Made by a program: the position numbers and the translations under genes
Source: Patescibacteria group bacterium
Lineage (GTDB): Bacteria > Patescibacteriota > UBA1384 > DATEAH01
NCBI GenBank assembly: GCA_035288465.1
Contig: DATEAH010000009.1
Location: forward strand, 11,951-75,950
Reading direction: 5' to 3'
Length of the DNA stretch: 64,000 nucleotides
Notes under the pieces: generated by a model
The model's database searches: none
Seen by the model: the letters and a program-made list of their open reading frames with translations, nothing else
Told to the model about the DNA's origin: nothing
Shown: one piece after another, positions 2-33,788 of the stretch
How positions within the stretch are numbered: the first letter of the stretch is position 1
How the letters are laid out: every line of letters starts with the position of its first letter

Positions 2-1669
2 TCATTGGATTTGCCGCTTGAAATTAATATTGCGCAGCCGAAATCTACCCCAAAATATAGCTATCGGTTGATTTCTAATTTAAAAATTGGGTCATCCCCA
101 GATTGGTTAGTAAAAAGATTAGAGCAAATGGGAGGCCGGTCTGTTAATAATATTGTTGACGTCACCAATTATGTGATGTTAGCTGTAGGACAACCTTTGC
201 ACGCTTTTGATTATGATAAAATTGAGCCTAAAATAATCTCGATTCGGAATTCAGAAGATTCAGAAAAAATTACCACCTTGGATGGGACTGAGCATAAATT
301 AGCCCCAGAAACGCTCGTAATTGAGAATAACGGCCGTTTAATTGATCTTGCAGGGATTATGGGTGGGGAAAATTCACAGGTTTCTCATGAGACCGGCACA
401 ATTATTTTACAGGCAGCAATTTTTGATCCTGTCCAAGTCCGCCGCAGCTCAAAAAAATTAAATTTTTCCACTGACGCCTCATACCGATATGAAAGGGGAG
501 TGGATTTTGAATTTACGCAATATGTCTTAGATTTCGCCACCAACTTAATCTTGAAATTATCAAAAAATGCCAAAGCTGGCGAAATTGTCGATTTAGTTTT
601 GGAAAAAGAAAAACCAATTGAATTAGACTTATCTGTCGAGAAAATCAATCACCTTTTAGGGACAAATTTATCCAAAGAAGTAATGGAAAAAATTTTGAAA
701 AATTTGGGATTCAAAATCGGCAATAAAATTACAGTTCCGTCCTGGCGCCACGATATTTATTGCTGGCAAGATTTAGCCGAAGAAATTGCCAGAATTTCCG
801 GATATGTAAATATTAAAATGAGTTATTTAAAACCCAAACCTCAACGGACGAATTTGGAATTTAATATTGAACAAAAAACAGCTTCAATCATATCCTCGTT
901 GGGATTTGTCGAAACTTTAAGTTATTCATTTGTTTCAGAAAAAGATTTGCAGAATTTTGGACAAAATCCAGCTAATGTTTTGGAAGTCACCAATCCAATT
1001 TCAAAAGAATATCAGTATTTGCGGCCTAATCTAAAAATTTCCGTCATTAAACAAATTGCCAAAAATCCCTGGGCGCCCGAGGTCAAATTATTTGAAATTG
1101 GGAATGTTTTTAATAAAAAATCTTCAAAAACGGAATTATTAATCGCCTCCACTCAAAAAAAATTAAAAACCGAAGAAATTATCTCAAATCTTAAAACCGG
1201 GTTAGGGATTAAGAATATTGAATATCAGGAAGAGGCGATTGAAGCGCGACTTTTAGGTTTATATAAAATTCGCCGTCCGGTGCGGATTATTTCAATTAAT
1301 TTTAATCAAATCAATAAAGTCGCCAAGCCTATTAAGATTGAATACCAATTACCAGAAATGTCCCAAAAATATCAACCAATTTCTAAATTTCCACCCACCA
1401 TTCGCGATTTAGCCTTTATCATCGATGCTAATATTTTGGCAGATGAGGTTTTAAAAACTATTAAAGTAATTGATCCGAAAATATTTTTAGTCGAAATTTT
1501 TGACGAATTTGCCTCTGATAAATTTGGAAAAGGCAAAAAAAATCTTGCTTTTCATATCTGGCTACAAGATTTACATAAAAACTTGAATCCAAATGAAGTT
1601 GATAATATAGTTGAAAAAATTAGCAATCTCATACAGAAAAAATATCAGGCAAAAATTAGAAATTTCTAA
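2..1669 (+). CDS. pheT: phenylalanine--tRNA ligase beta subunit, C-terminal portion (5' end outside window)
   Basis: ORF open to window edge; PheT-like B3/4-B5-FDX-ACB region (…GRSVNNIVDVTNYVMLAVGQPLHAFDYDKI…); aspS starts 9 nt downstream. Confidence 0.8.
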   Translation, partial: SLDLPLEINIAQPKSTPKYSYRLISNLKIGSSPDWLVKRLEQMGGRSVNNIVDVTNYVMLAVGQPLHAFDYDKIEPKIISIRNSEDSEKITTLDGTEHKLAPETLVIENNGRLIDLAGIMGGENSQVSHETGTIILQAAIFDPVQVRRSSKKLNFSTDASYRYERGVDFEFTQYVLDFATNLILKLSKNAKAGEIVDLVLEKEKPIELDLSVEKINHLLGTNLSKEVMEKILKNLGFKIGNKITVPSWRHDIYCWQDLAEEIARISGYVNIKMSYLKPKPQRTNLEFNIEQKTASIISSLGFVETLSYSFVSEKDLQNFGQNPANVLEVTNPISKEYQYLRPNLKISVIKQIAKNPWAPEVKLFEIGNVFNKKSSKTELLIASTQKKLKTEEIISNLKTGLGIKNIEYQEEAIEARLLGLYKIRRPVRIISINFNQINKVAKPIKIEYQLPEMSQKYQPISKFPPTIRDLAFIIDANILADEVLKTIKVIDPKIFLVEIFDEFASDKFGKGKKNLAFHIWLQDLHKNLNPNEVDNIVEKISNLIQKKYQAKIRNF

Positions 1670-9480: not shown

Positions 9481-10686
9481 TTACAGGGTAACTCCTTCGG
9501 CGATGTTTAGACAACGCGGCAGCCCAAAGGGGAACATCGAACACTTATTACCTGAACAAGTATTGCGGGGGCAGTCCTTGGCGAGCACTTTATCGTTGAC
9601 GCCAACATACAGGGCATGGGACAACTCATCCATCGAAAGCATTGTAGATTTAATGTCATGTTTTTGAGAGCCATTCATCACTCCCCAGACAATGCCGTTT
9701 TTACCCCGAGGTGCGTACCACCAGGGACAGATGCCATTAAAATCATCAGGTGAAAGGTCGCAAATCCGGTAAGAATCCGTAATTCCTCGAGCCTTTAGCT
9801 CAAGCACCTTGATTATTCGCGCTGTATCAGCAAGATCTAAATATTCGTCTGATGGACCCAAATCATCCTGGGGACGATGCACCCATTGATTGAGGAGAAT
9901 CTGGGTATTGCCCGATGATTGACGCTGAATAATAATATTGTGCTGCCCACCAGCTTTGCTTCGGCTATAACCGGCAACACCGTCCACATCAGTTTCGATC
10001 ATTGCCACTGAAATACACATTCGTCCGATTATGAATGATTTACACTTCACTTTATCTTGATATTCTGCTGGGACAGTAGCATCATACCAACGTTTGTAAT
10101 CAACCATACCGTCAACAATTCGTCCAACCAGCGTTTTCTCGCCTGGATCGCCAAGCTTTTTTCTTAGGTGCCCCATGATTGAAGGTAAACTAAACATTTC
10201 CAGAAGTCGGACCCGATCTTGTATTTCTTGCGGAGCTCCCAAATCACGAAGATCCTGAGAAACCGTGAAAGGCCCTTCGGTGTCGTGCATGTCAACATAA
10301 TCAACAAGAGCTCGAAAATAAGGGTGAAATTCAACTCCACCCCGGCGCGCGACGAGACGGGTTGTCGAACAATCAACGTCACTGGTTCCATGGTGGTCAA
10401 TAACGTAAAGGTCTAATTCCGGATCGTGCAATTTCTCAAGGGTTAAATGTTGTCTCCCAAAATCAAGAGCAATCGCACCAGCTTGTTTCATCTGTGCTAA
10501 GGTCATTGGCAGTTTGCCATGAAATTCAACTTTAGCCTCGCGAATTCCGGGAAATGCATGCAAACACTCTTCCTGGCGAGCGATTGCCAAAGATGCGAGG
10601 GCATCAAGGTCGGTATTTTGATGTAAAAGGACAATCTTAATGGTCGGATATTCTCTAATAGTTCGTGTCGGTTCTGAGTTAGCCAC
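9481..10686 (-). CDS. DHH-family phosphoesterase-like protein with Cys-rich C-terminus; GTG start preferred over the longer track ORF
   Basis: DHH motifs I (HQNTDLDALASL) and III (VIDHHGTSD), possible GGGH-like AGGQH; RBS AAGAGGTGA + GTG at 10686; ~47% GC. Confidence 0.55.
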   Translation of the reverse strand: MANSEPTRTIREYPTIKIVLLHQNTDLDALASLAIARQEECLHAFPGIREAKVEFHGKLPMTLAQMKQAGAIALDFGRQHLTLEKLHDPELDLYVIDHHGTSDVDCSTTRLVARRGGVEFHPYFRALVDYVDMHDTEGPFTVSQDLRDLGAPQEIQDRVRLLEMFSLPSIMGHLRKKLGDPGEKTLVGRIVDGMVDYKRWYDATVPAEYQDKVKCKSFIIGRMCISVAMIETDVDGVAGYSRSKAGGQHNIIIQRQSSGNTQILLNQWVHRPQDDLGPSDEYLDLADTARIIKVLELKARGITDSYRICDLSPDDFNGICPWWYAPRGKNGIVWGVMNGSQKHDIKSTMLSMDELSHALYVGVNDKVLAKDCPRNTCSGNKCSMFPFGLPRCLNIAEGVTL

Positions 10687-10744
10687 TTGAGTCACCTCTT
10701 GGGGCGTGGTAGAGATTAAATTGTGTATGTGCTTCTGGTTCAAG

Positions 10745-10773
10745 ATTATATCAAATAAATTATAAAATGTCAA
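10745..10773 (-). promoter_or_regulatory. sigma70-like promoter for the DHH gene (TTGACA-17-TATAAT)
   Basis: Consensus -35 and -10 hexamers with 17-nt spacer on minus strand, in an AT-rich stretch. Confidence 0.5.
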
Positions 10774-10993: not shown

Positions 10994-11958
10994 CTACCCC
11001 TCGCGGAGGAAGCTGTTGCGGGTGCGGGTGGGTTTGTTCTGCCGAGCGGCACGGCGAATCTCCTTGCCGTTCTCGGCGTTGCGCTTGGCATCGCGGCGGG
11101 AAGTGGGGCGGGAAGTGGAGGCCGGTGCGGCCTGAGTAGTGGTCTGTTCCAGGTAGGGACCCACATCGCCGTACTCGCGGTGATCAGCCTTGGCGATGAT
11201 CAGCCGAAGACCAGTACCGTTCATGCGGTCCTGTACCGCGGCCACGAGACCCTCCCCGCGCTCACGCGAACGCAGGTACATACCGGCGTTCTTGAGCGCC
11301 GTTGCGACCTCGTTCCATGTCTCCTGCCATTGCGCGCCCTGAGCGAAATACGAGTGGGCACGTTCAAGCTCGACGGGGAAGCCGTCGGCTTCGGCCTTGG
11401 AGATGAACTTCTCGACGGACTGTCTGGCGGCAGTCTCGTTGCCCTGGAAGACCTCGCTGGCAACGCCGAGAAGTTCGGCGAGGCACGTCTCGAACTCGTC
11501 GTGGCTCATCGCAGCGACGGTCTGTCCCTCCCACGCATAGGAGGGTTCGAACTCGCGAGACGGCAGCTCAGCCTGTGTGGCCGATGCCGTCGCTGCGTCC
11601 GTGTCGGCGCAGACGTCGTCTGCGGTCTCGGTCTGTGTCTCGGCCGCGGGCTCTGCAGACTCAGCGACGGGTGTCGCTTCAGCCGCAGGCGCGGTTTCGG
11701 GGGTGGGGGCCATCTCGGCCTCGGACCCACCCTCGTCGCTCGGTGCCGGAGGGATCTCCTCCTCTACAGGAGCAGGAGGGATCACCTCTTCGGCGGCAAT
11801 GAGCTTCGTTTCGCGAAGATCGAACCACGAAGCCCAACCGTCGTTGGCGGCGCGGAGCTTGGCGACGCCGTCGGTGTTCTCATCGCAGACCTGACAGAAC
11901 TCCGTCAGAGTCTGTGCCCCCTGAAGGGCAGTCGAAAGATCAGCGAGAGTCAAAGACA
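10994..11958 (-). CDS. hypothetical acidic protein (Pro/Ala/Glu-rich central low-complexity region), high GC
   Basis: GGAGG RBS then ATG at 11958 (MSLTLADLS…); ~62% GC; no family recognised. Confidence 0.45.
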
Positions 11959-12365
11959 TTATTGAACCTCCAGTGGTGCTATATTCCCTCCGCTTAAGCG
12001 CGAGGGTTTGTAACCTTGGAGCATGATCACGTCGAGTATGTAAACGAGTTAGTACGACAAATCTAACTCGAGACTTTTCCAGACCTTGGATGTACAAGTT
12101 GCGATTAAGTCAAGTTGTGAAGGAACCGAGTTGATCTGGCAAACAGCGTGAAGCTGAAATAATACCATTACAACATATGCGTATATTATAGCAAATAATA
12201 ATTTATTTGTCAAGAGTTATAGGAATAAAATCTCAGAAAATAATTTAGGCTCATAAAAAACGAACAGGGTGGGCAGAAAATCTCGGGTTGATAGCTGAAA
12301 GCTATCAAGCTTTGAAATTCTACCCACCCTTGGGTAAATTGTCAGATCCGACCGAAGTCGAATCA

Positions 12366-13028
12366 TTAGTCATCGGGTACGGGCGGAATCGGTTCAAGTG
12401 TTGGAGTTGACGGGGCTGGAGGTGCGGGGGTTGGTGGCGTTGGTGTAGTGTCGGCGGTGGGACCAACAGTCGCGCCAGCGGCGAACCGAGTCCGATTGGT
12501 GACCCGGGTGGTGTATCTGATGTACACAGAATTCCGGGCCGGGATCTCGGTGACCCCAAAGTCAGACAAGGAGGCATCCCCACCAAAGAGTCGAGCAAGT
12601 TGCTCGTCCGAAATGGGGATGTCTTCGCCGTCCCGGCCGATGTTAAGCAGACCGGAACCGGCCACCAAGGTCGCGTCACCATGTAGATTGTCGGTGCCGC
12701 GAACCTCATCCGCACGGGTCGGGGTATACCCGGAGTTCTGCCAATCGAGGCGCCACCGGAGATAGTCCCCGACACCGGACTCGACATTCTCCTGCCAGCC
12801 TGAGCCGGCGGGAGTCCGAGTCAAGTTCCGGACAAGCTTGAACGTCCGGAGCGGAGGCGGGAGGATCACCCTCGAAGCAGCTCGCGCTTCCCGAATGGGG
12901 ATTCCCAGGAACCAACCCCGCAAGATATTGGTAATCCTGCGACCGGACCAGAACAGAAGCCACAGGAGCCAGGCAACGACTCCTGCTGCGACGACGGACA
13001 ATACCGTTACGAGTGTGGTCATTACCAT
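12366..13028 (-). CDS. hypothetical N-terminally membrane-anchored protein with Pro/Thr-rich C-terminus, high GC
   Basis: [29 protein letters not shown] helix; start overlaps stop of upstream collagen-like gene (ATGGTAATGA). Confidence 0.45.
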
Positions 13029-13702
13029 AACCTCCTGAGGTATTCCCGGATGCCGATGTACGCGCAGCCCAAGATTACGAAAATCAGGGCTACGATGGCA
13101 ACGAGTAGCCAAGGGCTGTCTCCTTGCCCATCGGGTGCGGACGGACCAGTCATTGTCTTGGATGCGAGGACCTGACGGTCTCGTGCCTCGACAAACGACT
13201 TTGAGACGACGCCGGATTTGATAGCCCATTCCGCGATGGTCTCAATGACCACGTGGCGCGATAGGCCATCTTGTCCGGCTGGTCCGCGAGGTCCGCGCGA
13301 ACCGCGACGTCCCAGACCCGAAGGTCCAGGTACGCCATCTTTGCCAGCAGGACCAGGAGCACCGTTTTGGCCGTTTAGACCAGGCGCCCCGTCCTTAACG
13401 GCAGGCCCCGGGATTCCCTGCGGACCCGGAGGTCCGGCAAGTCCGCCAGTTGACACCACCACTGGGGGTGGTGTTGTGTCCGGTGAGACCGGAGGCGCTA
13501 GAGTTTCCGGAGTCGAATTGACCTCCGGTTGCTCCACTGGAATCTCCACTGGGATGGTCGGCTGGTTGGGCTGATCAGTGCGCCCAAGGACTTTTACGTC
13601 CCGGGCGTCACCTTCGGCCCTTGCAACTTGCAACGAGGCCACCGCTGCCAGGAGGCAAGCGGCGACCCAGAGAACGAACTTGTGACGGTTCATCGCCGTC
13701 AC
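13022..13702 (-). CDS. secreted collagen-like (Gly-X-Y) repeat protein with C-terminal TM anchor, high GC
   Basis: Signal peptide [29 protein letters not shown]; [11 protein letters not shown]…[25 protein letters not shown] triplets; C-terminal hydrophobic helix. Confidence 0.55.
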
Positions 13703-13865
13703 CTCCTATCCGGCAGCGGTGACCTCTCTGGTGGTCATCGTGCCTAAAACCGTCCCAATACACCCACAAAGGGTTTAATCAGGATCGGTCGAGAGCTATG
13801 TTAAAGTGCCTGAGGCACTTGGAATCTGAGAAATCTGAGAGTAAGCCTCGAATTCCTATATTATA

Positions 13866-13905
13866 TCAAAAAAAGCTCCCTCTGTCAAGGGAATTAGCTT
13901 TATTT
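13866..13905 (-). terminator. intrinsic terminator of leuS (TCCCT-loop-AGGGA + GCTTTTTTT on minus strand)
   Basis: Hairpin followed by 7-T run directly 3' of the leuS stop. Confidence 0.6.
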
Positions 13906-13939: not shown

Positions 13940-16780
13940 TTAGATCACAAAATTTATTAAACGGTTTGGGACCCAGATCGTTTTTTTTATTTTTTTATCA
14001 GCCAATAACGCCAAAATATTTTTAGATTTTTTCGCCAGTTCAATTATTTCTTTTTCCGAAATTCCATTGACCACTGTTAATTTATCTCGAACTTTGCCAT
14101 TAATTTGCACTACTACCAAAATATCTTTAAGTTTGACTAATTTCTCATTAAACTCAGGCCATTGTTCTTCGAAAATGGGATTTTTATGTCCTAATTTTTG
14201 CCATAACTCTTCAGCCAAATGCGGAAATATCGGTGCCATTAAAATCAGGATTTTTTCACCAGGCTTTTTTTCGTGATTAAAATATTCCATCATTGCCGAA
14301 ATTGCGGTATTTAATCGAAAATTTTCTAAATCTTCTGTCACTTTTTTAATCGCATGATGTAGCAGTGGTGTTTCATTTTGACCAAATTTTGTCCCCCAGA
14401 CTTTTTTCAAAAACCTAAAAATACCCAAGATGCCAGAATCCATCCATTCCGAATCCTCATCAGCCGGACCGATAAACATTTCATAGCCGCGTAAAGCATC
14501 GGTGCCATATTTTGCCACCAATTCATCTGGCGAAACAATATTGCCTTTGGATTTGGACATTTTTGCACCTTGATAATAAATCATGCCAATGTTAAATAAT
14601 TTGCGAAATGGTTCGCCATCTGGATCAAAATTAGTTAATTTGAAATCGTGTAAAAATTTACAAATAAATCTCGCGTATAATAAATGCATCGTGGCGTGTT
14701 CAATACCACCAATATATAAATCAACCGGCAACCAAAACTCGGTTTTTTCCTCATCAAAAGCTTTTTCAGAGTTTTTCGCATCCGCGTATCTTAAATAATA
14801 CCAAGATGAACAAACAAATGTATCTAAAGTATCGGTTTCTCGTACAGCTTCGCCGCCGCATTTTGGACATTTGGTTTCTAAAAATTCTTTATCGTGTTTT
14901 AATGGAGAACCGCCAGTCGGTTTAAATTCAATCTCTTTTGGCAACACCACTGGCAGCTCATTTTCAGGTACAGCCATCTCACCGCACTTATTGCAATATA
15001 TAATAGGTATAGGGGCACCCCAATAGCGCTGCCTCGAAACCAACCAGTCTCGTAAATGATAAGTGGTGGTTTTTTTAGCTTCGCCCTTTTTCGCCAACGA
15101 GCTTGTAATCTTAATTTTTGCTTCATTAGAATCCAAGCCATCAAATTCACCCGAATTTATCAAAATTCCCGTCTCCTCATAAGCCAAATTTTCATGATCA
15201 ATTCGGTCAAACCACAAATCTAATTCTGCACAAGTCATTCTGGCTGGAGTAATTTGCTCGCGAGATAACCATTCAATCTCGTGTTTTTCTTTTTCTTCCG
15301 CAGAAACTGGTACGCGCTCGTCATCAATCAATTCAAAATACAAAGCATTCGTCATCGCCTGCCGATTGACATTTTTGTGAGCGGCATAATATTCGGAAAA
15401 AACCAGACCGCCTAAAAATCGAGTGAATTTAACATTCACAAAACCGGTTTCTTCTTTAATTTCTCTTTTGGCTGCCCCTACTAAATCTTCGCCATCTTTT
15501 GCGCCGCCAACCACAAAAGCGATCCAGGGTTGTTTTTTCCAATTCAAACAGAGGTATTTTTTAGTTTTTGGATTGAAAACTATGGCATGGACTGAATTTC
15601 TTTTGGCAATTTCTTTTCCGTCTTTGGGTGGATTTTTAGAATCAATTCGATGGGGGATAATGACATCTTTTATCGGTAAATCGTATTTCTTAGCAAATTC
15701 AAAATCGCGCTGGTCATGAGCTGGCACACACATAATTGCACCTGTCGCATAATCTCGCAAAACATAATCCGCGACCCAAACCGGGATTTTCTCGCCATTT
15801 ACCGGATTAACCGCGTATGCACCCGTGAAAACGCCAGTTTTTTCACGAGTCGTAGAAGTTCTTGCTATTTCCGAATATTTTCCGGCCTTTTCCACGTATT
15901 CCGCCACCGTCTTTTTTTGTTTAGGAGTAGTAATTTTAGCCACCATTTCGTGTTCTGGGGCCAAAACTAAATAAGTGGCGCCAAATAAAGTGTCGGGTCT
16001 GGTGGTAAACACCTCAATAAAATGTTTCGAATTTAATATTTGAGATTTAGGATTTGTTTCGAATTTCGAATTTCGAATTTCGAATTTAATCGTTACTCCC
16101 TCAGAGCGTCCAATCCAATTTTTTTGCAAGATCTTAGTTCGTGCTGGCCAATCAATTTTTCCCAAATCCGCTAATAACCGATCGGCATATTTAGTAATCT
16201 TAAAAAACCATTGTTTTAAATCTTTTTTGACCACTTTTGAACCGCAACGTTCGCATTCACTTGCCACCACCTGTTCATTAGCCAAAACCGTGTGGCAAGA
16301 TGGACAAAAATTAACCAAGGCTTTTTTGCGATATGCCAAACCCTGTTTATATAATTGCAAAAATAACCACTGCGTCCAGCGATAATAATCAGGGCTTGAG
16401 GTATTAATTTCTCGTTCCCAATCATATAATGAACCAATTTGTGCCAATTGTTCTTTAAATTTAGAAATCGCAGTCTCAGTAAATTCCGCCGGATGAGAAT
16501 TTTTTTTAATCGCCGCATTTTCCGCCGGCAAGCCAAAAGCATCAAAGCCCATCGGATGCAAAATATTTTTACCTTTTAAAATTTGATAGCGCGTCCAAAT
16601 GTCAGACAAAACATAGCCTCGCCAATGCCCCACATGCAAACCTTCCCCAGATGGATAAGGGAACATATCCAAACAATAAAATTTGGGCTTTTTAGAAAAA
16701 TCCACGGCCTGATTTAAATTATTCTTGGCCCAAACTTTTTGCCACCTGGATTCAATTTTTTGAGGATTATAATCTGTCAT
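13940..16780 (-). CDS. leuS: leucine--tRNA ligase carrying an inserted NUDIX domain (aa ~375-535) and a repeat-derived low-complexity insertion (aa ~231-254)
   Basis: HIGH (LHVGH), KMSKS, CP1 editing AHDQRDFEFA; Nudix box GGAKDGEDLVGAAKREIKEETGF between IKDVI and GILINSGEFDGL. Confidence 0.9.
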   Translation of the reverse strand: MTDYNPQKIESRWQKVWAKNNLNQAVDFSKKPKFYCLDMFPYPSGEGLHVGHWRGYVLSDIWTRYQILKGKNILHPMGFDAFGLPAENAAIKKNSHPAEFTETAISKFKEQLAQIGSLYDWEREINTSSPDYYRWTQWLFLQLYKQGLAYRKKALVNFCPSCHTVLANEQVVASECERCGSKVVKKDLKQWFFKITKYADRLLADLGKIDWPARTKILQKNWIGRSEGVTIKFEIRNSKFETNPKSQILNSKHFIEVFTTRPDTLFGATYLVLAPEHEMVAKITTPKQKKTVAEYVEKAGKYSEIARTSTTREKTGVFTGAYAVNPVNGEKIPVWVADYVLRDYATGAIMCVPAHDQRDFEFAKKYDLPIKDVIIPHRIDSKNPPKDGKEIAKRNSVHAIVFNPKTKKYLCLNWKKQPWIAFVVGGAKDGEDLVGAAKREIKEETGFVNVKFTRFLGGLVFSEYYAAHKNVNRQAMTNALYFELIDDERVPVSAEEKEKHEIEWLSREQITPARMTCAELDLWFDRIDHENLAYEETGILINSGEFDGLDSNEAKIKITSSLAKKGEAKKTTTYHLRDWLVSRQRYWGAPIPIIYCNKCGEMAVPENELPVVLPKEIEFKPTGGSPLKHDKEFLETKCPKCGGEAVRETDTLDTFVCSSWYYLRYADAKNSEKAFDEEKTEFWLPVDLYIGGIEHATMHLLYARFICKFLHDFKLTNFDPDGEPFRKLFNIGMIYYQGAKMSKSKGNIVSPDELVAKYGTDALRGYEMFIGPADEDSEWMDSGILGIFRFLKKVWGTKFGQNETPLLHHAIKKVTEDLENFRLNTAISAMMEYFNHEKKPGEKILILMAPIFPHLAEELWQKLGHKNPIFEEQWPEFNEKLVKLKDILVVVQINGKVRDKLTVVNGISEKEIIELAKKSKNILALLADKKIKKTIWVPNRLINFVI
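16019..16090. repeat. intragenic in-frame copy of the palindromic repeat family inside leuS, including (TTCGAAT)x4 7-bp tandem repeat
   Basis: Sequence …GAGATTTAGGATTTGTTTCGAATTTCGAATTTCGAATTTCGAATTT… matches arms of intergenic copies; encodes FEIRNSKFETNPKSQILNSKH. Confidence 0.5.
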
Positions 16781-18078: not shown

Positions 18079-18867
18079 TCATATCTTATTATTTAAACCC
18101 TTCATCTTTTTATCTATCTCATTATAAAGTTCTGAACCTACTTCCTCAAAAACTTTTAATAAATCTTCATAAGTATTTTTACCGCCAAGTAAATCCCAAA
18201 ATTCAACCCCAACCAAAACTTCTTCTTTCAAGTCAAAAAGTCCTTGCAATGTCCAACGCTCATATGGTTTTGGTTCGTAAGGATTATATGGAATAGCAAC
18301 GATTGTTTTAATTTTTGCTTTTGGGTTTTCACTACCGCGCATCGTAATCCAATCTAGCATTTGCTTTTTAATGCCGGTAAATTCGTTCATGTTTGGTTTT
18401 GCGCTTTTTAGTTCAAAATAATACTCTGTTTCGTCTTTCATTTCTATAAAAAGGTCAACGCGCTTTTTAAGTTTTTTTCCCATTTCGCCTTTGCCGGCTA
18501 CGGCCAATACTTCTTTCGTTTCTTTATCCTTATCAGGCGTTCGTGAAGCAAGACGTAATTCACGCATTATACTATCAATTTTCAAAACGGCTTCGCTACT
18601 GATATATCCTTCAAATCCTTTATATTGTCCTATTGCTTGTTTGGCTTTTGGCTCGGCGATTATTTTACCAACCTGCTCAAAAATTGATGTTCCAAGTATT
18701 GTGTTTACTGATTGAATAAAAGAGAATAACGCCATTCTATCTTTGCCGAGTAAACGAAAATGAAATGGCATTGAATTTGTCTCCGGATCATAAGTCGCCA
18801 ACTTTTGGCGGATTTTACTTACTAAATACTCCTTAATCTGTTTGCTTTGTTGAGTTGTGAGTGCCAT
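18079..18867 (-). CDS. putative type II restriction endonuclease (PD-(D/E)xK-like candidate)
   Basis: Starts 1 nt after the MTase stop on the same strand; possible VDLFIEMK catalytic motif; no firm family match by eye. Confidence 0.45.
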   Translation of the reverse strand: MALTTQQSKQIKEYLVSKIRQKLATYDPETNSMPFHFRLLGKDRMALFSFIQSVNTILGTSIFEQVGKIIAEPKAKQAIGQYKGFEGYISSEAVLKIDSIMRELRLASRTPDKDKETKEVLAVAGKGEMGKKLKKRVDLFIEMKDETEYYFELKSAKPNMNEFTGIKKQMLDWITMRGSENPKAKIKTIVAIPYNPYEPKPYERWTLQGLFDLKEEVLVGVEFWDLLGGKNTYEDLLKVFEEVGSELYNEIDKKMKGLNNKI

Positions 18868-18868
18868 A

Positions 18869-20458
18869 TTATTTTTCCTTTTTTAAGTGAAAAATTATTT
18901 CCGAATAAGGAGACTTGTCCCGTTCGGTTCTATTTAATACTGGTCGTTTAAATTGGTTTATAATTTTCATTCCAACTCGATCGGCAATTGTAGAATAAAG
19001 ATTGTATTTATCGTTTGCAACGATGAATACATCAAAATCATTAGCTAAAAATTTTCTACAATTAAGCAGAACTCTTGAAATTCCCTCAACATAAGATGCG
19101 CGCGCTTCCGTACTCTGACCTTTATAAAGCGGTCCTATCTCAAGCTCATCTCTGCGTTCAAATCCGAAAAGATCGTATGCATAAGCATGTTGCTCGTGAT
19201 AATCAATTTGACCAACATAGGGTGGTGAAGTAAAAATGCCATTGATTTTTTTCTTCTTTAAAACCTCGTAGAATTTTTTGTTTCTTTTTTTTACTTCTTC
19301 AAAAATATCCACCGTCCGAGAGTCTGCAGGAAGTATGGTATAATGTGCGTTTGTCTTTAGCTTTGTGAAGGTTCTGAGTCGATATACAGTATCAACTGCA
19401 TATCGATCGAACCACTCCTTTACTGAGAAAAGAGGCTTACAGATCTTTTTGTGTTTCCAGCAATAATAAGTTGTTATTTGCGGTTCTTTGAGGGTAGCTA
19501 AATCCGAGTGTGTCGTTGCGCGGCACGACCTTATCGTTCGACTCAAAATTATCGCTAATATCTTTTTATTCCTGACATCTTTTACTTTCTTGATTTGTTT
19601 AAATGCAAAATCAATTTCTTTGCGTATATTTTTAATATACCATTTGTCTAAGAAGTTTTTAGCGGAAAAATGATTTAATTCAATACCATATTTCTTAACG
19701 AGGCCGTTATAAATTTTCAAAAATTCTTTTTCTTTCTCTGTCGAGTATTTTTTTTCATCTATTTGTCTTCTTTGAACCTTATATTTGAATTCTGGACTTG
19801 GGAAGTATTTATTATTGAAATTTGTCATATGCATTAATAGCTCATTTTCAAAACTAGTAAGATTAATGTCAGCCTCGTAGTTTGTAATTGCTTGTCTTAT
19901 TTTTTCAACTTCGCTCTCAAGAGCTGGAAAATCATAATCGAGCAACTTTGTTTCTGTCATCATGCAATTAAAACGAGATATATCAATACCGATAGCATTT
20001 ATTCCCATTTCATGTGCTTGTACAAGTGTTGTTCCTGAACCGGAAAACGGATCAAGAACAATGTCGCCTGAATTAAAATAAACATCTTTTTTAAAATTGT
20101 CAGTATGGTTGTCAATAAAATATTGGACAAGTTGCGGAATAAACTTGCCTTTGTACGGATGCAAACGATGGACGTGCTTTGTCGTGTCCTTTTCTTTGAG
20201 GTGATCAAAGGACAATGCCCAATTCAAGTCATTACCAAGTCGTTTTTTCCAATCAATCTCTTGTTTTCCTCGATATGAATCATAATAATTTTTTAAATCG
20301 TTTAGATTAACAAAAATAGAAGCACCGCTATTGTGTTTTTTTATTTTCCCGTATTGAACTAAATACGAAATATTTGATTCGCTAATATCGCGCCTAAGGA
20401 AATCACTTGCCCAATGACTCGCTTCTTTAATTGTTAGAAGTTGTTTAGTTTGTTGCAT
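18869..20458 (-). CDS. DNA methyltransferase (N4-cytosine/N6-adenine type; SPPY motif IV and DPFSGSGTT motif I)
   Basis: VLDPFSGSGTTLVQA (AdoMet motif I) and IFTSPPYVGQIDY (motif IV). Confidence 0.8.
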   Translation of the reverse strand: MQQTKQLLTIKEASHWASDFLRRDISESNISYLVQYGKIKKHNSGASIFVNLNDLKNYYDSYRGKQEIDWKKRLGNDLNWALSFDHLKEKDTTKHVHRLHPYKGKFIPQLVQYFIDNHTDNFKKDVYFNSGDIVLDPFSGSGTTLVQAHEMGINAIGIDISRFNCMMTETKLLDYDFPALESEVEKIRQAITNYEADINLTSFENELLMHMTNFNNKYFPSPEFKYKVQRRQIDEKKYSTEKEKEFLKIYNGLVKKYGIELNHFSAKNFLDKWYIKNIRKEIDFAFKQIKKVKDVRNKKILAIILSRTIRSCRATTHSDLATLKEPQITTYYCWKHKKICKPLFSVKEWFDRYAVDTVYRLRTFTKLKTNAHYTILPADSRTVDIFEEVKKRNKKFYEVLKKKKINGIFTSPPYVGQIDYHEQHAYAYDLFGFERRDELEIGPLYKGQSTEARASYVEGISRVLLNCRKFLANDFDVFIVANDKYNLYSTIADRVGMKIINQFKRPVLNRTERDKSPYSEIIFHLKKEK

Positions 20459-25170: not shown

Positions 25171-26751
25171 TTAATTTTTATTTAGGCTAGAAAGCAGGCT
25201 TTTGCCGGTCATTTCCGCCGGAATCGCTAAGCCTAAAAGTTCTAAAATTGTGGGTGCAATATCGGCCAAATTATAATCAGAACCCATCATTGCCGAGATT
25301 ATTGAGCCTCGATCAACTTGTTGCATCAGACTATGTTGGTCAAGGCGGTTGTCTGGATTAATTAAAATAAATGGCACCGGATTAGTGGTATGAAAATTTT
25401 TTAATTGACCGGTAAAACTGCTAATTTTGCCCATTTCTTCGGCTAAACCATGATCAGCAGTCAGAATCGCACAACCGCCCACGCTAAGGGTTTTTTCGAC
25501 AATTTCCGCAATTGCAATATCAACATATTTAACCGCCGTTTCCACAACTTGGGAATTTCCGGTATGTCCGCAAATATCAACATTTGGTAAATTCGTCACA
25601 ATTAGATTAAAATTGCCCTGCACAATTTTAGAAACTACCATATTTTTAACGTCATATAACCTTAATTGTGGTGATTTGTTAATATCATGGCTGGTGTATG
25701 ATTTGAGAATAAAATTTTCTTCACCTGTGAATTTTGAATGTGAATAGCCGTTAAAATCATATATTAAATTCTTTTCTTTGTAGCTTTCCGTGATTTTAGC
25801 AATTTTTAAATTATTTTTAGAAATCACCTCGCTAAGGGTAGGGCTAACTTTGGGGGTGGTAAAAATCGGTTGAGTTTTGAGATGGGAATAATCAGTCAGG
25901 GTATAAATATTTTTATTATAATTAGAAATAATATTGATATATTCGGAAATATCTCGGCCATTAAAATTAAAAAATATGATCGAATCGTCAGGTTTGATGC
26001 GACTCAATTCAGGATCAAAATTTAACATTAAAGTTGGCGAAAAATCAGCATCACCAACATGATTCTGATAAGAATTTTTAATCGCCTGCAGAGGATTGGG
26101 GGAAGTCGGAATTTTATTTGTTTCAAAAAGAGCTCGAGCCGAGATTCTAATTTGTCGCAAATCAGCATCGCCATCCTCAATCCAGCCTCGTCCAGTTAAG
26201 GTGGCAATTTTTCCCAAATTTTGGCTTTCCAGCGTTTTTTCTAACCAATCAATCGTGCCAATGCCGGCATTGTGATTGGTGTCAACGCCATCCAAAATCC
26301 CGTGCAAATAAACGTTTTTTACCCCTTTATTTTTAAAATAATTAAGTAAGGCCTGTAAATGAGTTAATTCAGCCACCGAATGAGCTTTGGTAATCATGCC
26401 CACCAAATGTAAATTTGTTTTGGCATTAAAAATATTTAAAGCAATTTTGTGCAAAATTTGGTTTTGATAAAATTCACCGCTTTTAATCTGGCTGGAGATA
26501 ATCCCCGAAATCGGCAAAACTAATCGTCCCGCACCAATTATAGTATGGCAGATTTCAGAATCAGGGTATGTGTCTCGATCACTCGAGACCATCGCTAATG
26601 ATTTTAATGATTGATGGGGATAATTTCGCCAATAATAATTAAAATTTCTCGGCTGTCCCGAAGCAATAAAATTACCGCTCCAAGAAGGAGTTAAGCCCCA
26701 GCCGTCTAAAATAATTAGCACAATTGGTTTATAAAGAGATTTTTGATTCAT
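25171..26751 (-). CDS. divergent paralog of 2,3-bisphosphoglycerate-independent phosphoglycerate mutase (iPGM/alkaline-phosphatase superfamily)
   Basis: ILDGWGL N-terminus and metal-binding DHGL…, CGHTGN conserved, but canonical MGNSEVGH replaced by DSEICHTIIG. Confidence 0.6.
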   Translation of the reverse strand: MNQKSLYKPIVLIILDGWGLTPSWSGNFIASGQPRNFNYYWRNYPHQSLKSLAMVSSDRDTYPDSEICHTIIGAGRLVLPISGIISSQIKSGEFYQNQILHKIALNIFNAKTNLHLVGMITKAHSVAELTHLQALLNYFKNKGVKNVYLHGILDGVDTNHNAGIGTIDWLEKTLESQNLGKIATLTGRGWIEDGDADLRQIRISARALFETNKIPTSPNPLQAIKNSYQNHVGDADFSPTLMLNFDPELSRIKPDDSIIFFNFNGRDISEYINIISNYNKNIYTLTDYSHLKTQPIFTTPKVSPTLSEVISKNNLKIAKITESYKEKNLIYDFNGYSHSKFTGEENFILKSYTSHDINKSPQLRLYDVKNMVVSKIVQGNFNLIVTNLPNVDICGHTGNSQVVETAVKYVDIAIAEIVEKTLSVGGCAILTADHGLAEEMGKISSFTGQLKNFHTTNPVPFILINPDNRLDQHSLMQQVDRGSIISAMMGSDYNLADIAPTILELLGLAIPAEMTGKSLLSSLNKN

Positions 26752-26760
26752 AAAATTAAA

Positions 26761-28329
26761 TTATGTCGTAGTTGGTAAACCATGATAATGATTTTGGGCA
26801 AATAAACTATTTTCCATTTCTTGAGGTTTTGGAATATCTAAAATTTCCAAAATTGTGGGCGCAATATTTGCCAAACGCCCAGGATGAAGGTTTTGATATT
26901 TTCTCACATCGTCAATGATAATAAAGGGGACATCAGAAGTGCTGTGCTCGGTTTCAGGTTCTGAAGTTTTTGGGTTTAACATTTGTTCGGCATTGCCATG
27001 GTCGCCGGTGATGATCGTGACCCCTTTATGGCGCTTCATTTCATTCACAAAACTGCCCACGATTTTATCTAAATAAGTAACTGCCGCAATAGTTGCCTGC
27101 ATGTTGCCGGTGTGGCCAACCATATCCGCATTGGCAAAATTAATTACCATAAAATCAAATTTATTTAAATTTTCAATTGCTGTTTGGGCAATTTCGGCCG
27201 CAGACATTTCGGGTTGAAGATCGTAAGTAGATATTTTTTGGGAGGGGATTAGAATTCTTTTTTCTCCAGGAAATGGGTTTTCCCTGCCACCATTAAAAAA
27301 ATAAGTAATATGGGCGTATTTTTCAGTTTCTGCCAAATGCAGTTGCGTGAGATTATTGTTCGATAAAATTTCCGCTAAACAATTTTTAACTTCAGCCGGG
27401 ACAGGAAAGGCTACTTTTATATCTAATGAATTCTCGTATTCATAAGGCACTAAGCTGGCAAAATAACACTTTTTAAGTTTTTTGGTATGAAATTCTTTAA
27501 ATTTGGGATCGCAAATGCTCCGCACGATTTGTCTCATTCGATCAGCACGAAAATTAAAAAATAAAACTGCATCGCCATCTTTAATTTGACCGGCTGGTTG
27601 ATTTTTAGCTTCAATACTGGTCGGTTCAATAAATTCATCAGTTTTACCAGCAGCATAATTTGCGCTCACCGCTTTTCGGGCATCGCTTGACACCGCGCTT
27701 TTGCCTTCGACAATCACTCGATATTCTCTTTCGGTTCTTTCCCATCTTTTATCGCGATCCATCGCATAATATCTGCCACCAATACTCGCAATTCTGCCCA
27801 CCTTAGTTTGGTTAATTTTATCAGTCAATTTGGCAATAAACGAAATTGCGGCGGTCGTTGGAGTGTCGCGACCATCGCAAAAAGCATGAATAAATACTGA
27901 ATCTAATTCTTTTTGCTGGGCATAATCCAATAATGAAAACAAATGATTAATATGAGAATGGACACCGCCATCCGAAACTAAACCCACGAAATGTAAAGAA
28001 GAGTTATGTTTTTTCGTCCAATCAAAAGCGGCATTAATGACGGGATTTTTAAAAAAACTCCCATCGCTAATTGATTGGTTAATTCTCGAAATGTCCTGTT
28101 TTAAAACCCGACCTGTGCCAATACTCAAATGGCCAACTTCGGAATTGCCCATTTCCTGGCCCGGTAAGCCGACATTATCACCCGAAGCTTTTAATTGAGT
28201 ATGAGGGTAAATAGACCAATAACGGTTCATGTTTGAAGTTTCAGCCAATGAAATTGCATTACCACCCCAAGAAGGGCTGATTCCCCAGCCATCCAAAATT
28301 ACCAAAGCAAATGGTGATATTTTCTTCAT
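26761..28329 (-). CDS. gpmI: 2,3-bisphosphoglycerate-independent phosphoglycerate mutase
   Basis: VILDGWGI, MGNSEVGHLSIGTGR, GDHGN, MVGHTGN motifs. Confidence 0.85.
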   Translation of the reverse strand: MKKISPFALVILDGWGISPSWGGNAISLAETSNMNRYWSIYPHTQLKASGDNVGLPGQEMGNSEVGHLSIGTGRVLKQDISRINQSISDGSFFKNPVINAAFDWTKKHNSSLHFVGLVSDGGVHSHINHLFSLLDYAQQKELDSVFIHAFCDGRDTPTTAAISFIAKLTDKINQTKVGRIASIGGRYYAMDRDKRWERTEREYRVIVEGKSAVSSDARKAVSANYAAGKTDEFIEPTSIEAKNQPAGQIKDGDAVLFFNFRADRMRQIVRSICDPKFKEFHTKKLKKCYFASLVPYEYENSLDIKVAFPVPAEVKNCLAEILSNNNLTQLHLAETEKYAHITYFFNGGRENPFPGEKRILIPSQKISTYDLQPEMSAAEIAQTAIENLNKFDFMVINFANADMVGHTGNMQATIAAVTYLDKIVGSFVNEMKRHKGVTIITGDHGNAEQMLNPKTSEPETEHSTSDVPFIIIDDVRKYQNLHPGRLANIAPTILEILDIPKPQEMENSLFAQNHYHGLPTTT

Positions 28330-30886: not shown

Positions 30887-31010
30887 ATTCTGATTTCATT
30901 TTACCTTATTTGAGCTAAATTTCAATAAAAAAAGCCCGCCAAGGTTTTCCCGCGACGGGGCAGTTAAGGGGCAGTTAAAATGATAAAGTGTTTGAATAAT
31001 TGGGTTTGTG

Positions 31011-31211
31011 TTAAATAAATTTGATCTTATCTGGAGGGGGAAAAGGATTATCCTTGTAAAGGGTTTTAAAGATTTGATAATAATGGCGTTTGGTGGTCCG
31101 GCTATTTTTCGAACAAAGCAGACAAGCAAGAACTGACGTAAAAGTCAAGAATGATATAATCGCCAGCAACGGGATTAAACTAACCAATCCGATAACGGCT
31201 TCATGGCTCAT
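31011..31211 (-). CDS. small hypothetical membrane protein
   Basis: 66-aa ORF with one TM helix and AAAGGAGA RBS. Confidence 0.4.
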   Translation of the reverse strand: MSHEAVIGLVSLIPLLAIISFLTFTSVLACLLCSKNSRTTKRHYYQIFKTLYKDNPFPPPDKIKFI

Positions 31212-31268
31212 CTTTCCATCTCCTTTGGGTTGGTTTGGTGACTGTGGATTAAATAAGGCAAGTTTGAT

Positions 31269-31547
31269 TCACGGGCGAGTATCTGAGAATTCAATAAAGG
31301 GATTAAATGGATAAAACCCATTTGTCACCCCTGAGCTGGCATCGGACAATATTATCAAAAATCTTTGTTGTGCTTCGTCATCTTCTGGAAGAACAGATTC
31401 GATCCAGCAAAACAAATTCTTAAAGAGCCTTTGAGCAAAAAACAACAATACATACCCAATCAATAGGAGAATTGGGATTAATATTGACCAGATGAAGAAA
31501 AATGCGATGTCAGAAAAAAGATACTGCAGATTCGCCACCATATGCAT
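31269..31547 (-). CDS. small hypothetical membrane protein
   Basis: 92-aa ORF with TM helix and GGAAAGGAGA RBS. Confidence 0.45.
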   Translation of the reverse strand: MHMVANLQYLFSDIAFFFIWSILIPILLLIGYVLLFFAQRLFKNLFCWIESVLPEDDEAQQRFLIILSDASSGVTNGFYPFNPFIEFSDTRP

Positions 31548-31659
31548 TATCTCCTTTCCGAGAAAGGATGTTCAATTTATAATACTACCAAAAAATAGCT
31601 AAAAAATCAAATTAAATCTTTAAAAAAAACGATTTTTAGGGTATAATTGAGCTAAGAAT

Positions 31660-31743
31660 GCCGAGGTGGCGGAATTGGTAGACGCGCAGGTCTCAAACAC
31701 CTGTGAGCGCAAGCTCATGCGGGTTCGATTCCCGCCCTCGGCA
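31660..31743 (+). tRNA. tRNA-Leu (anticodon CAA), long variable arm
   Basis: Acceptor GCCGAGG/CCTCGGC, D-loop AATTGGTAG, anticodon loop CTCAAAC, 15-nt variable arm, T-loop TTCGATT; TATAAT -10 13 nt upstream. Confidence 0.9.
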
Positions 31744-31794
31744 TTTTTTATTTGGCCACAAAAAAAAGACTTGACATTTTACCGAATTTGAGTT

Positions 31795-32472
31795 ATGATA
31801 AAATCAATGAAATTTACATTTTTAGCCCAAGAAAATTTAAAAAATCTTTTCAAAAACGTCCTCAAATTTGCGGTTTTCTTTTTAATTATCTTTGCCATTA
31901 TGTTTACACTTTTAAATTGGCCAGCCGTGAAAATTAATGTTAGCTATTATTGGGGAAAAATATTTCACCAAAATAATTCCCAAAAAACAGAACTTACGAC
32001 CTTACCAAATATTAATAATTCCAAACAGCCAACCACCACCGAACTTAAACTCGGAAATAACCGGATTGTGATAAATAAAATAAATATAAACGTTCCTATT
32101 GTTTGGAATGTGCCTGAAAAAGATTTTATTGCCAGTTTAAAAAATGGCGTGGCTCATTATCAAGGCACCGCCAAACCCGGCGATAAAGGCAACATTTTTA
32201 TCGCTGGCCACTCTTCAAATTATTGGTGGGAACAAGGTCCTTATAGCGCCATTTTTTCGATGATCAATAAATTAGATCTCGGCGACGAGGTGATCATTAC
32301 CTATAATAATAAAGCTTATTATTATCGCGTCCAAGAGAAATTTACAGTTAAGCCATCTCAAGTTGAAGTCATGATGCCAACCAAAGAACCAACTTTAACC
32401 TTAATGACTTGCACGCCAATTGGCACGAGTTTAAATCGTTTAATTGTTCGAGCCGATCAGGTAATTCCTTAA
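31795..32472 (+). CDS. sortase-family transpeptidase
   Basis: TLMTCTP catalytic Cys motif and upstream IAGHSS His; N-terminal TM anchor. Confidence 0.7.
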   Translation: MIKSMKFTFLAQENLKNLFKNVLKFAVFFLIIFAIMFTLLNWPAVKINVSYYWGKIFHQNNSQKTELTTLPNINNSKQPTTTELKLGNNRIVINKININVPIVWNVPEKDFIASLKNGVAHYQGTAKPGDKGNIFIAGHSSNYWWEQGPYSAIFSMINKLDLGDEVIITYNNKAYYYRVQEKFTVKPSQVEVMMPTKEPTLTLMTCTPIGTSLNRLIVRADQVIP

Positions 32473-32483
32473 AATTCATCGAG

Positions 32484-33788
32484 CTAATTTCGAAATTTGA
32501 GCAAATTAAGTTTTTTATCAAGATCTAAATAAATTAATTGATTTTGCGAGATTATCTCAAAATTTACCCCCGGAGCTAAGGTTATTTCGTTTTTGCCGAA
32601 TAAATCTATCACTTTTATTTTTTGGTCAAGATTAAAAATAATATAAGGAAAATTATCAAGCCATTCAATTTTCGAAATGGTTTTTGAGGTACGGTAAATT
32701 AAGACATTATTTTTGGTTTCCGGATCATAGTACCAAATTTCACCTAAATCGGTTTTGTATAAAAGTTTTGATTTTTTAATCAAGCCAAAAAAGCGTAATT
32801 CTTGTGAACAAGAAAAATCCTCGACTTGGCTCGAAATCGTTTTAAGCGAGTTATTAATTACTATTGATAATTTGCCTTTTTCATCTAAAATAAAAATATT
32901 TGAATTTTTCACAAAAAGTTTATATTCGCCAGCCGTTAAAGTCACCAAATTTTTAGAATTTGTCAAATCAAAATCAGCTCTTCTGAGCTGGAGTTTATTT
33001 TTTGCTAAAGTTAAATAATAAAGGTCGTTATTCTCAGGGAATATTTTTTGAATATTGTCAGCAATTAGCTTTAAGTTGCCATTTTTAATATTATAAAATT
33101 TGCTATCTTGAGTTAAAATTAAAAAGGTCTGATGACCTTGAGGTAGCCAATAAATTTGTTTAATTTTAGCCGGTATTTTAAAATCAACCGCTGCCAGAAT
33201 ATTATCATTGGCATTATAAAGATAGTAATTACCATTGCCTGCCAGCAAGGCTACTTCAGAATCTGCCGACCAACTGCTAATTTTAAGATTTTCGGGAATT
33301 TTTTTAATGCTTCTAAGGTCTTTGGTGTTTAGATTGTATTGATTTAAAGTTTTATTTATATATAATAATTTATTTGAATCTGGTGAAACCTGGAAAGATT
33401 TAATATTTGAAGCGATATTGGTTTTTTCCGGAGAGGCATAAAAAAGGACAATGTCTTCAAATTTAATCACCCGACCAACCTCAACCGTGATGTGCTTTTT
33501 CCAACTTTGATAATTTGTTTTGCGAATTTCCAAGTCATAATCACCCGGCAATAATCCCAAAGAAGCCGGGCATTGACTTGCCGCTAATTTTCCCGAAACC
33601 AAAATCTCGACATCGCGCGGTTGGCAGGTTATATAAATTAAACCGGATTTTTGCCATTTATGAGCCGAGTAATTATATTTATACCCAGCTGCCCAGAGTA
33701 CCAAAAATATCGAAACTGCCAAAAAAATCACTCCGATCAAACTCCAAAGACTAAGGGTGGCAATAATTTTTTTATGATGTTTTTTCAT
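32484..33788 (-). CDS. membrane-anchored PEGA-domain / beta-propeller-like protein
   Basis: N-terminal TM; PEGA-like segment CQPRDVEILVSGK…GDYDLEIRKTNYQSWKKHITVEVGRV; repetitive beta-rich remainder. Confidence 0.5.
   Translation of the reverse strand: MKKHHKKIIATLSLWSLIGVIFLAVSIFLVLWAAGYKYNYSAHKWQKSGLIYITCQPRDVEILVSGKLAASQCPASLGLLPGDYDLEIRKTNYQSWKKHITVEVGRVIKFEDIVLFYASPEKTNIASNIKSFQVSPDSNKLLYINKTLNQYNLNTKDLRSIKKIPENLKISSWSADSEVALLAGNGNYYLYNANDNILAAVDFKIPAKIKQIYWLPQGHQTFLILTQDSKFYNIKNGNLKLIADNIQKIFPENNDLYYLTLAKNKLQLRRADFDLTNSKNLVTLTAGEYKLFVKNSNIFILDEKGKLSIVINNSLKTISSQVEDFSCSQELRFFGLIKKSKLLYKTDLGEIWYYDPETKNNVLIYRTSKTISKIEWLDNFPYIIFNLDQKIKVIDLFGKNEITLAPGVNFEIISQNQLIYLDLDKKLNLLKFRN

Follow-up and report, generated by a model that had tools for sequence, protein, structure and literature searches.

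A pair of adjoining GC-rich open reading frames, here termed ORF1 and ORF2, is found in the AT-rich genome of a Patescibacteria group bacterium (GenBank assembly GCA_035288465.1, contig DATEAH010000009.1, positions 11,951 to 75,950 of the forward strand; the whole stretch of 64,000 nucleotides is referred to as the window). The locus raises the question of what the two open reading frames encode together, and whether their base composition marks them as foreign. An initial annotation described a secreted collagen-like protein and a coupled membrane-anchored partner, and pointed to Actinobacteria or phages as the origin. The answer that we favour, and regard as probable, is that ORF1 and ORF2 belong, as a split and translationally coupled form, to a family of bitopic envelope proteins that is so far undescribed, and that they most likely make up a hypervariable surface contact fibre of an episymbiont which probably acts with machinery resembling a type IV secretion system (T4SS). 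The features of the pair are as follows (aa positions are those of the respective protein; TM, transmembrane).

13860–13888, minus strand: ORF1-ORF2 promoter, TTGACA, 17 nt, TATAAT, with an extended −10 TG; 12/12 matches
13694–13853, minus strand: 5′ leader of about 160 nt, its 3′ part GC-rich, with GGAGG at 13706–13702
13693–13022, minus strand: ORF1, ATG start, 223 aa
13693–13616, minus strand: ORF1 aa 1–26, signal peptide of n-h-c type with an AXA site, cleavage before EGD
13615–13445, minus strand: ORF1 aa 27–83, tip of 57 residues rich in Pro, Thr and Glu
13444–13259, minus strand: ORF1 aa 84–145, 19 Gly-X-Y triplets by direct count, in runs of 5, 8 and 6
13258–13154, minus strand: ORF1 aa 146–180, segment conserved in homologues, including AEW...SFVEARDxxxL
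13111–13049, minus strand: ORF1 aa ~195–215, TM helix, followed by a short basic tail, REYLRRLW, predicted to be cytoplasmic
13020–13035, minus strand: coupling junction, GGAGG at 13035–13031, 8-nt spacer, ATG at 13022–13020
13022–12366, minus strand: ORF2, 218 aa (public call P0001)
13019–12948, minus strand: ORF2 aa 2–25, TM helix
12938–12501, minus strand: ORF2 aa 29–174, DUF11-like beta-sandwich
12464–12369, minus strand: ORF2 aa ~187–218, disordered Pro/Thr-rich tail
12250–12330, minus strand: terminator-like hairpin, 31-nt arms at 12330–12300 and 12296–12266, then GUUCGUUUUUUAU

Two halves of one membrane protein

ORF1 and ORF2 are the halves of a single protein, and the second half is a DUF11-like domain of immunoglobulin (Ig) fold; both points were missed by the initial annotation. 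ORF1 aligns to residues 45–172 of a longer homologue, P0069 (E = 3e-14), and ORF2 aligns to residues 205–319 of the same protein (E = 7e-16). This collinear match to a fused protein shows the two window genes to be the split form of one protein family.

Among 1.84 billion representative proteins, an exhaustive HMMER search detected 22 homologues of ORF2, each of which is either split and small or else fused. Eleven of these are longer, fused proteins in which a signal peptide is followed by a low-complexity or coiled-coil stalk, a motif before the TM helix (...(F/Y)V(E/D)ARDQK.L...), the single TM helix and the ORF2 domain. Gly-X-Y runs are present in seven of the eleven; the collagen repeat is a common form of the stalk in this family, though not a universal one. 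Five other homologues are small (188–211 aa, 36–46% identity to ORF2 in alignment A1). In all five the upstream partner ends in a TM helix, and every partner whose N-terminus falls within the contig also has a signal peptide and a stalk. The junction between partners is tight in four of the five, with ATGA at locus L092, TAG and ATG abutting at L095/L096, a 3-nt gap at L098 and a 1-base overlap at L103. The L097 pair is the exception, with a 29-nt gap and its own ribosome-binding site. A word-indexed protein search with ORF2 and then with alignment A1 returned ORF2 itself only, and a metagenome scan with a closer alignment, A3, returned known loci only. The family appears to be undescribed and has so far been found only in AT-rich genomes resembling those of the candidate phyla radiation (CPR)/Patescibacteria.

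The junction in the window reads GGAGGTTATGGTAATGA, i.e. GGAGG-TT-ATG-GTA-ATG-A. The ORF1 stop codon TAA (13024–13022) and the ORF2 start codon have one base, A, in common. This TAATG overlap bears out the earlier statement that the ORF1 stop overlaps an ORF2 start preceded by a GGAGG ribosome-binding site. An alternative upstream ATG at position 13028 is merely 2 nt from the GGAGG, and the public call uses the ATG at 13022. Translational coupling of ORF1 to an N-anchored partner, as first proposed, is supported by the overlapping junction and by the TM helix of ORF2.

ORF1 displays a signal peptide and a TM helix on the minus strand, which supports the reading of its product as a secreted collagen-like protein with a C-terminal anchor. 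About 20 triplets had been estimated for it; against the 19 counted, a check of the periodicity found just two interruptions, a triplet in which Val replaces Gly (VKD) and a two-residue break (GL). The Pfam Collagen model (PF01391) matches ORF1 with 26.9 bits (E = 4e-6), which is 0.3 bit short of the gathering score of 27.2. A word-indexed protein search with ORF1 gave only Gly-X-Y matches. The possibility that ORF1 is a lipoprotein (VAAC, residues 10–13) was rejected; the hydrophobic core runs beyond the Cys to the AXA site, and the Cys is absent in homologues.

The plan of ORF1 is like that of Streptococcus Scl1/Scl2, Legionella Lcl and Bacillus BclA, with a signal peptide and a Gly-X-Y repeat that would hold a variable N-terminal region outward. 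The NCBIfam models for Scl (SclA and SclB; NF038329, NF038330) and Lcl (NF046116) match ORF1 in the repeat region, at residues 83–143 only, with 18.9–27.5 bits, far under their cut-offs of 325–500. Unlike these proteins, ORF1 has no globular head and only 19 triplets, lacks an LPXTG motif at the C-terminus, where the TM helix and REYLRRLW are found instead, and is combined with a DUF11-like domain across a TM helix, either as a separate partner or within one chain. The short interrupted collagen segment beside a helical neck and a single TM helix, and the predicted trimeric stalk on the membrane, recall animal membrane collagens and collectins. This is an analogy only: there is no homology, ORF1 has a type I orientation where the animal membrane collagens have type II, and its context is prokaryotic.

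ORF2 was initially described as N-anchored and Pro/Thr-rich. The anchor holds, but only the last ~30 residues are Pro/Thr-rich and the body is a folded beta-sandwich. AlphaFold2 (AF2) run with a 16-sequence family alignment gives ORF2 a pLDDT of 89.2 and a TM helix followed by the sandwich; the model is reliable only with this alignment, as the ORF2 sequence alone gives a pLDDT of 48 and is unusable. Pfam DUF11 (PF01345) shows weak matches in five of 16 family members, and ORF2 itself is below every Pfam threshold. Distant phmmer matches in the whole library (E = 2e-9 to 4e-4) are multi-repeat DUF11 proteins, which themselves match Pfam DUF11 at 1e-18 to 1e-59, and the strand motifs K-x-V-x-N-x-T and x-N-x-G-x-T are kept in the ORF2 family in alignment A1. 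According to the model and these matches, the ORF2 domain is probably a divergent DUF11-type Ig-like sandwich.

The position of this domain relative to the membrane is predicted from charge and architecture. All six split ORF2-type proteins have no Lys or Arg before the TM helix and 2–5 after it, and the fused forms have a signal peptide and one TM helix between the stalk and the domain. Because the positive charges follow the TM helix and the fused forms have a single such helix, the ORF2 domain is predicted to be cytoplasmic. The beta-sandwich, with its DUF11 strand motifs and its matches to true DUF11 repeat proteins, is similar to DUF11 (the 'conserved repeat domain') and to the Ig-like domains found in adhesins and pilins of Gram-positive bacteria, such as those of MSCRAMM N2 type and of PrgB. 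These are known as extracellular domains; the ORF2 sandwich differs from them in its predicted location, in being single-copy and in directly following an N-terminal TM helix. The top Foldseek matches of ORF2 were collagen-binding MSCRAMM domains. The idea that ORF2 binds the collagen segment of ORF1 was set aside, as the matches are weak and the two parts are predicted to lie on opposite sides of the membrane.

The pair has its own expression signals. Perfect TTGACA-N17-TATAAT sequences occur four times in the window, where none is expected (100 shuffles). Three of the four, each with an extended −10 TG, are upstream of ORF1 (13888–13860) and of the next two genes, ORF3 (12213–12185) and ORF4 (10773–10745). 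Near-perfect equivalents are located upstream of the family genes in L091, L098, L099, L101 and L104. The ORF1 leader has a folding z-score of −3.9 against shuffled sequences. The terminator-like hairpin lies directly 3′ of the ORF2 stop codon and is followed by a U-run (minimum free energy −52.3 kcal/mol, z = −8.05). The promoter, the structured leader and the hairpin thus mark ORF1-ORF2 as a bicistronic unit in its own right, with signals for very strong expression, and the consensus promoter suggests an abundant product. No common leader RNA structure was found across six loci (0 predicted pairs).

A 15-nt inverted repeat (13712–13726 and 13635–13649, 93% complementary) flanks the ribosome-binding site and start of ORF1, with the initial ~15 codons of the gene lying between its arms. 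This repeat could occlude or regulate the initiation of translation.

Base composition and history of the locus

The GC content is 0.61 in both ORF1 and ORF2. GC at third codon positions (GC3) is 0.58 in ORF1 (z = 4.5), 0.65 in ORF2 (z = 5.7) and 0.74 in ORF3 (z = 7.3), the reference being the 42 other genes of the window with 0.33 ± 0.056. GC at fourfold-degenerate sites is elevated too in ORF1–ORF3, but less than GC3. The composition steps are sharp, at about 13,790 and 12,366. The spacers between the GC-rich genes have 40–43% GC and hold the promoters. The tract is therefore deviant, as the initial annotation stated of its high-GC cassette in an AT-rich genome, but it is not one block, as ORF3 is separated from ORF2 by a 406-nt spacer of 40% GC.

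The z-scores of 4.5 to 7.3 and the sharp steps are what would be expected if the islet had been imported recently from an actinobacterial host or some other bacterium of high GC content, and recombinational allele replacement is indeed seen at a sister-lineage locus (see below). Such an import is nevertheless considered improbable. ORF2 relatives are absent from one genome per species of 185,579 GTDB species and from the phage records searched, which with the sister-lineage site and the recurrent GC3 described below speaks against the origin first suggested. All homologue loci with sufficient flanks are among AT-rich housekeeping or T4SS-like genes. The spacers of the GC-rich genes are host-like in composition and their consensus promoters are of the host type. 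No tRNA is found within 6 kb, and there are no flanking direct repeats and no integrase or mobility gene; Rfam detects three tRNAs only in the window.

Raised GC3 is also a recurrent property of the family. In six of six other orthologous loci checked the family gene exceeds its neighbours: L092 (0.62–0.63 vs 0.32–0.38), L099 (0.70 vs 0.43–0.48), L101 (0.61 vs 0.34), L091 (0.42 vs 0.26–0.28), L095 (0.41–0.43 vs 0.26–0.30) and L098 (0.44–0.45 vs 0.26–0.32). In L092, L099 and L101 the acidic genes located after the family gene are GC-rich too, and GC-rich family members are present in L097, L102 and L105. This recurrence across AT-rich genomes is a poor fit to a single recent import, and a single ancient import cannot explain the GC3 because synonymous sites are saturated at such protein divergence. 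Candidate causes are repeated import of alleles from GC-richer members of the same gene pool, or a gene-specific force, namely a recombination hot spot with GC-biased gene conversion or selection that favours an abundant mRNA. For bacteria, it has been proposed that recombination is linked to GC3 by way of GC-biased gene conversion (PMC4450053).

In the window the pair is flanked by housekeeping genes and lies between leucyl-tRNA synthetase (LeuRS) and YceD/L32. The fused gene of L091 and the split genes of L095/L096 keep this order, i.e. LeuRS, family gene, YceD/L32, NusB, RNase III and onward. Between the lineages the housekeeping proteins are 50–72% identical, and ORF1 and ORF2 are 30–44% identical. 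The same site, together with an identity lower than that of the housekeeping neighbours, indicates that the family gene was inherited in place and is evolving fast, and it also counts against import.

The sister-lineage loci (L091 at 1145–2971, compared with L095/L096/L109) display another property. The 631 bp downstream of the family gene are 100% identical between L091 and L095. On the 5′ side, L091 is 90.5–96.4% identical to L095/L096/L109 over the promoter, signal peptide, tip and first collagen triplets. The intervening ~750 bp, which comprise the rest of the fused gene in L091 and the rest of the split genes in L095/L096, have no nucleotide similarity. The presence of fused and split alleles between near-identical flanks shows that the cassette has been replaced in this sister lineage.

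Variation within the window population is concentrated in the tip. A variant, L002, differs from the window by two non-synonymous single-nucleotide polymorphisms (SNPs), one synonymous SNP and a 6-bp (two-codon) deletion, all at positions 13486–13536 in the ORF1 tip. The remaining three SNPs across ORF1–ORF3 are synonymous. A diversity-generating retroelement was considered and rejected, as no reverse transcriptase is nearby and the ORF2 protein is invariant in the population.

The tract would also appear foreign if high-GC reads had been joined to an AT-rich contig during assembly. Mis-joins do occur in the tract: the JGI contig L007 (4745–5612, matching the window from ~11781 downward) departs at about codon 60 of ORF3 into a high-GC gene of the AsnC_trans_reg2 type, and is probably itself a chimera. 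For the window arrangement, a chimera has next to no probability. The order LeuRS-ORF1-ORF2-ORF3-ORF4-L32 is found at 99.6–100% identity in at least nine other contigs from three assembly pipelines (ENA/MEGAHIT, Logan and JGI) and several samples, with both AT-rich flanks, and orthologous arrangements are present in divergent lineages. The artefact envisaged in the initial annotation can thus be dismissed and the arrangement is real.

A prophage remnant, with ORF1 as a tail-fibre or receptor-binding protein, must be considered because ORF1, like the collagen-like tail fibres of phages (phrog_366, phrog_8745, phrog_1806), has short Gly-X-Y segments and is matched by PHROG tail-fibre and collagen-like minor-tail profiles with E = 1e-8 to 1e-3. 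All of these matches are confined to the Gly-X-Y stretch at residues ~80–150, and its signal peptide and TM anchor set ORF1 apart from the tail fibres. Neither ORF2 nor ORF3 is matched in PHROGs, phage genomes, IMG/VR or BFVD, and the flanks contain no phage genes. The search for ORF2 relatives covered 50,697 phage records, 72,556 plasmids, IMG/VR and the BFVD structures. A phage origin is accordingly held to be very improbable.

Genomic neighbourhood and candidate role

Outside the window lineage, family members are found near T4SS-like genes. The order in L098 is TrbL_3 (VirB6-like), a 490-aa gene, the pair, an 880-aa gene, DUF5663, PrgI, a TraC-like gene, a VirB4-like gene and a wall hydrolase. 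L099 has LeuRS, a TPR gene and TrbL_3, the fused collagen-bearing gene directly after it, and then further genes, PrgI, a TraC-like gene and a VirB4-like gene. In L092 the pair is followed by further genes and a TrwB/VirD4-like gene is 5 kb away. This gene set matches the T4SS of Patescibacteria, which is of the monoderm MPF-FATA type (PMC12102498). The family resembles the accessory and adhesin parts of this system (PMC12102498) in being bitopic with a surface-exposed part and in having relatives between VirB6/TrbL-like and PrgI/VirB4-like genes. It differs in that the window copy is not beside T4SS genes and in that the family resembles, by sequence or by profile, neither PrgB, PrgC and VirB8/PrgL nor the remaining listed components. 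In the survey of these systems a PrgB-type adhesin was not detected, and the ORF1-ORF2 family is not among the genes discussed (PMC12102498).

Two further observations were made on these loci. At L092 the homologous pair is directly preceded by an integrase/transposase-like gene (3–815, minus strand). Conserved genes of 614 aa and 108 aa follow the L092 pair and are present also in L097 and L098.

A role as an adhesin or as an element of host or partner recognition is plausible from the architecture and the neighbourhood. In the proposed mechanism, ribosomes that finish ORF1 would re-initiate on ORF2, giving similar amounts of both proteins. ORF1 would be exported and would trimerise by its collagen-like segment, forming a stalk that extends ~16 nm off the membrane with the variable tip outermost. 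ORF2 would be inserted with its N-terminus out and its C-terminus in, leaving the sandwich domain in the cytoplasm, and the two parallel TM helices would pack together and so reconstitute the fused protein. The raised GC3 would be the trace of alleles imported repeatedly, of GC-biased gene conversion in a hot spot of recombination, or of both.

A more specific version of this scheme is possible though doubtful. Here the locus would be a recombination-driven specificity cassette of an ultra-small episymbiont: the fibre tip recognises a partner cell, the cytoplasmic Ig-like domain couples contact to the T4SS-like machinery and strains exchange entire alleles of either form, fused or split, with the GC3 rise as the footprint of exchange by GC-biased gene conversion or as the result of selection on an abundant, long-lived mRNA.

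The main rival of the contact fibre is a purely structural role as an abundant part of the envelope, for example a strut across the wall or the attachment of an S-layer or surface coat. The family gene would then have no T4SS role and would be placed beside LeuRS by ancestry alone. In the window and at L091/L095 the pair is indeed between LeuRS and the L32 cluster, with T4SS genes not nearby. The pair displays a perfect promoter, a long folded leader and a strong terminator-like hairpin, a combination typical of surface-layer genes with very high expression. The relatedness of L098 and L099 means, in addition, that the adjacency to T4SS genes is not independent in the two. The pair or its fused form is, on the other hand, within the block from TrbL to PrgI-VirB4 in L098 and L099 and 5 kb from the VirD4-like gene in L092, and allele replacement and a variable tip suit recognition better than a strut or anchor. 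A purely structural role is rather unlikely.

Several points weigh against the contact fibre. A tblastn search of the 64-kb window found no TrbL, PrgI, TraC-like, VirB4 or type IV coupling protein gene. A virB4 gene within about 20 genes, together with other T4SS components, is found for the L098 and L099 homologues but not for the window copy. The L098 and L099 VirB4 proteins are 73% identical; these loci are thus fairly close kin and the adjacency to T4SS genes, seen in two to three lineages, could be inherited gene order. The collagen segment of ORF1 is short, has two breaks and falls slightly below the Pfam threshold. A cytoplasmic DUF11/Ig-like domain would be unusual, and its predicted placement follows from the positive-inside rule only.

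Other features of the window and significance

The two transcription units downstream of the pair are as follows.

10994–12213, minus strand: ORF3 unit, perfect promoter at 12213–12185, leader, and ORF3 at 11959–10994 (321 aa)
9481–10773, minus strand: ORF4 unit, perfect promoter at 10773–10745, and ORF4 at 10686–9481 (401 aa) with DHH motifs

ORF3 encodes an acidic, Ala/Glu/Pro-rich protein with a basic C-terminal tail. Its GC is 0.65 and its GC3 is the maximum of the window. Library, profile and phage searches gave no family or homologue. The similarly placed acidic, basic-tailed, GC-rich genes of L092, L099 and L101 give hhalign E = 0.2 with ORF3, and homology is not demonstrable. ORF3-like proteins were also compared, as a Rosetta-stone test, with the C-terminal extensions that the long family members carry, and the outcome was negative.

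ORF4 has a weak Pfam DHH match (E = 0.0024). Its homologues adjoin family genes in L092 (30% identity, E = 2e-50) and L099 (29%, E = 2e-41). The 401-aa form with the GTG start at 10686 is favoured because the promoter at 10773–10745 falls within the longer, 451-aa call.

The LeuRS gene (13940–16780, minus strand, 946 aa) has a NUDIX domain inserted in mid-protein according to Pfam, and contig L001 calls it in two pieces of 275 and 668 aa. A HinfI-type restriction endonuclease and an N6/N4 DNA methyltransferase form a restriction-modification pair at 18079–20458 (minus strand) with a very low fourfold-site GC of 0.25–0.28. Cofactor-independent phosphoglycerate mutase is present as two tandem paralogues (526 and 522 aa) at 25171–28329 (minus strand), with enolase and a bifunctional PGI-type isomerase beside them. 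Of the two paralogues, the first is a much poorer match to the family profiles than the second. Two small open reading frames, at 37378–37752 (minus strand) and 46643–47086 (plus strand), have a moderately elevated GC3 of 0.51 and 0.46 (z = 3.2 and 2.3). A giant open reading frame starts at 54329 on the plus strand and runs beyond the window end at 64000. It exceeds 3224 aa, is rich in Thr, Ser, Ala, Gly and Asn, has N-terminal hydrophobic segments and is probably a very large surface protein.

The cumulative GC skew has its minimum at ~31000–35000, where the gene strand switches from mostly minus to mostly plus. Two tRNAs and a gap of ~0.9 kb are found at 30.8–31.8 kb. This region may be the replication origin, and it is ~20 kb from the pair. 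T4SS genes of Patescibacteria are often near the origin (PMC12102498).

The ORF1-ORF2 family provides a natural example of one membrane protein with fused and split alleles at the same locus. The reproducible, gene-specific high synonymous GC in AT-rich genomes offers a test case for biased gene conversion versus selection on mRNA. For genome scans, it means that a high-GC gene that looks like an orphan in an AT-rich genome need not be a recent foreign insertion.

The ultra-small CPR/Patescibacteria live attached to other cells, and their T4SS-like genes have been reported to be essential for the attached lifestyle (PMC12102498). A probable surface fibre gene that evolves fast, exchanges alleles, has a strong promoter and is located beside T4SS-like genes is a testable adhesin candidate. 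If the specificity cassette outlined above proved true, it would supply the adhesin missing from surveys of the Patescibacteria T4SS.

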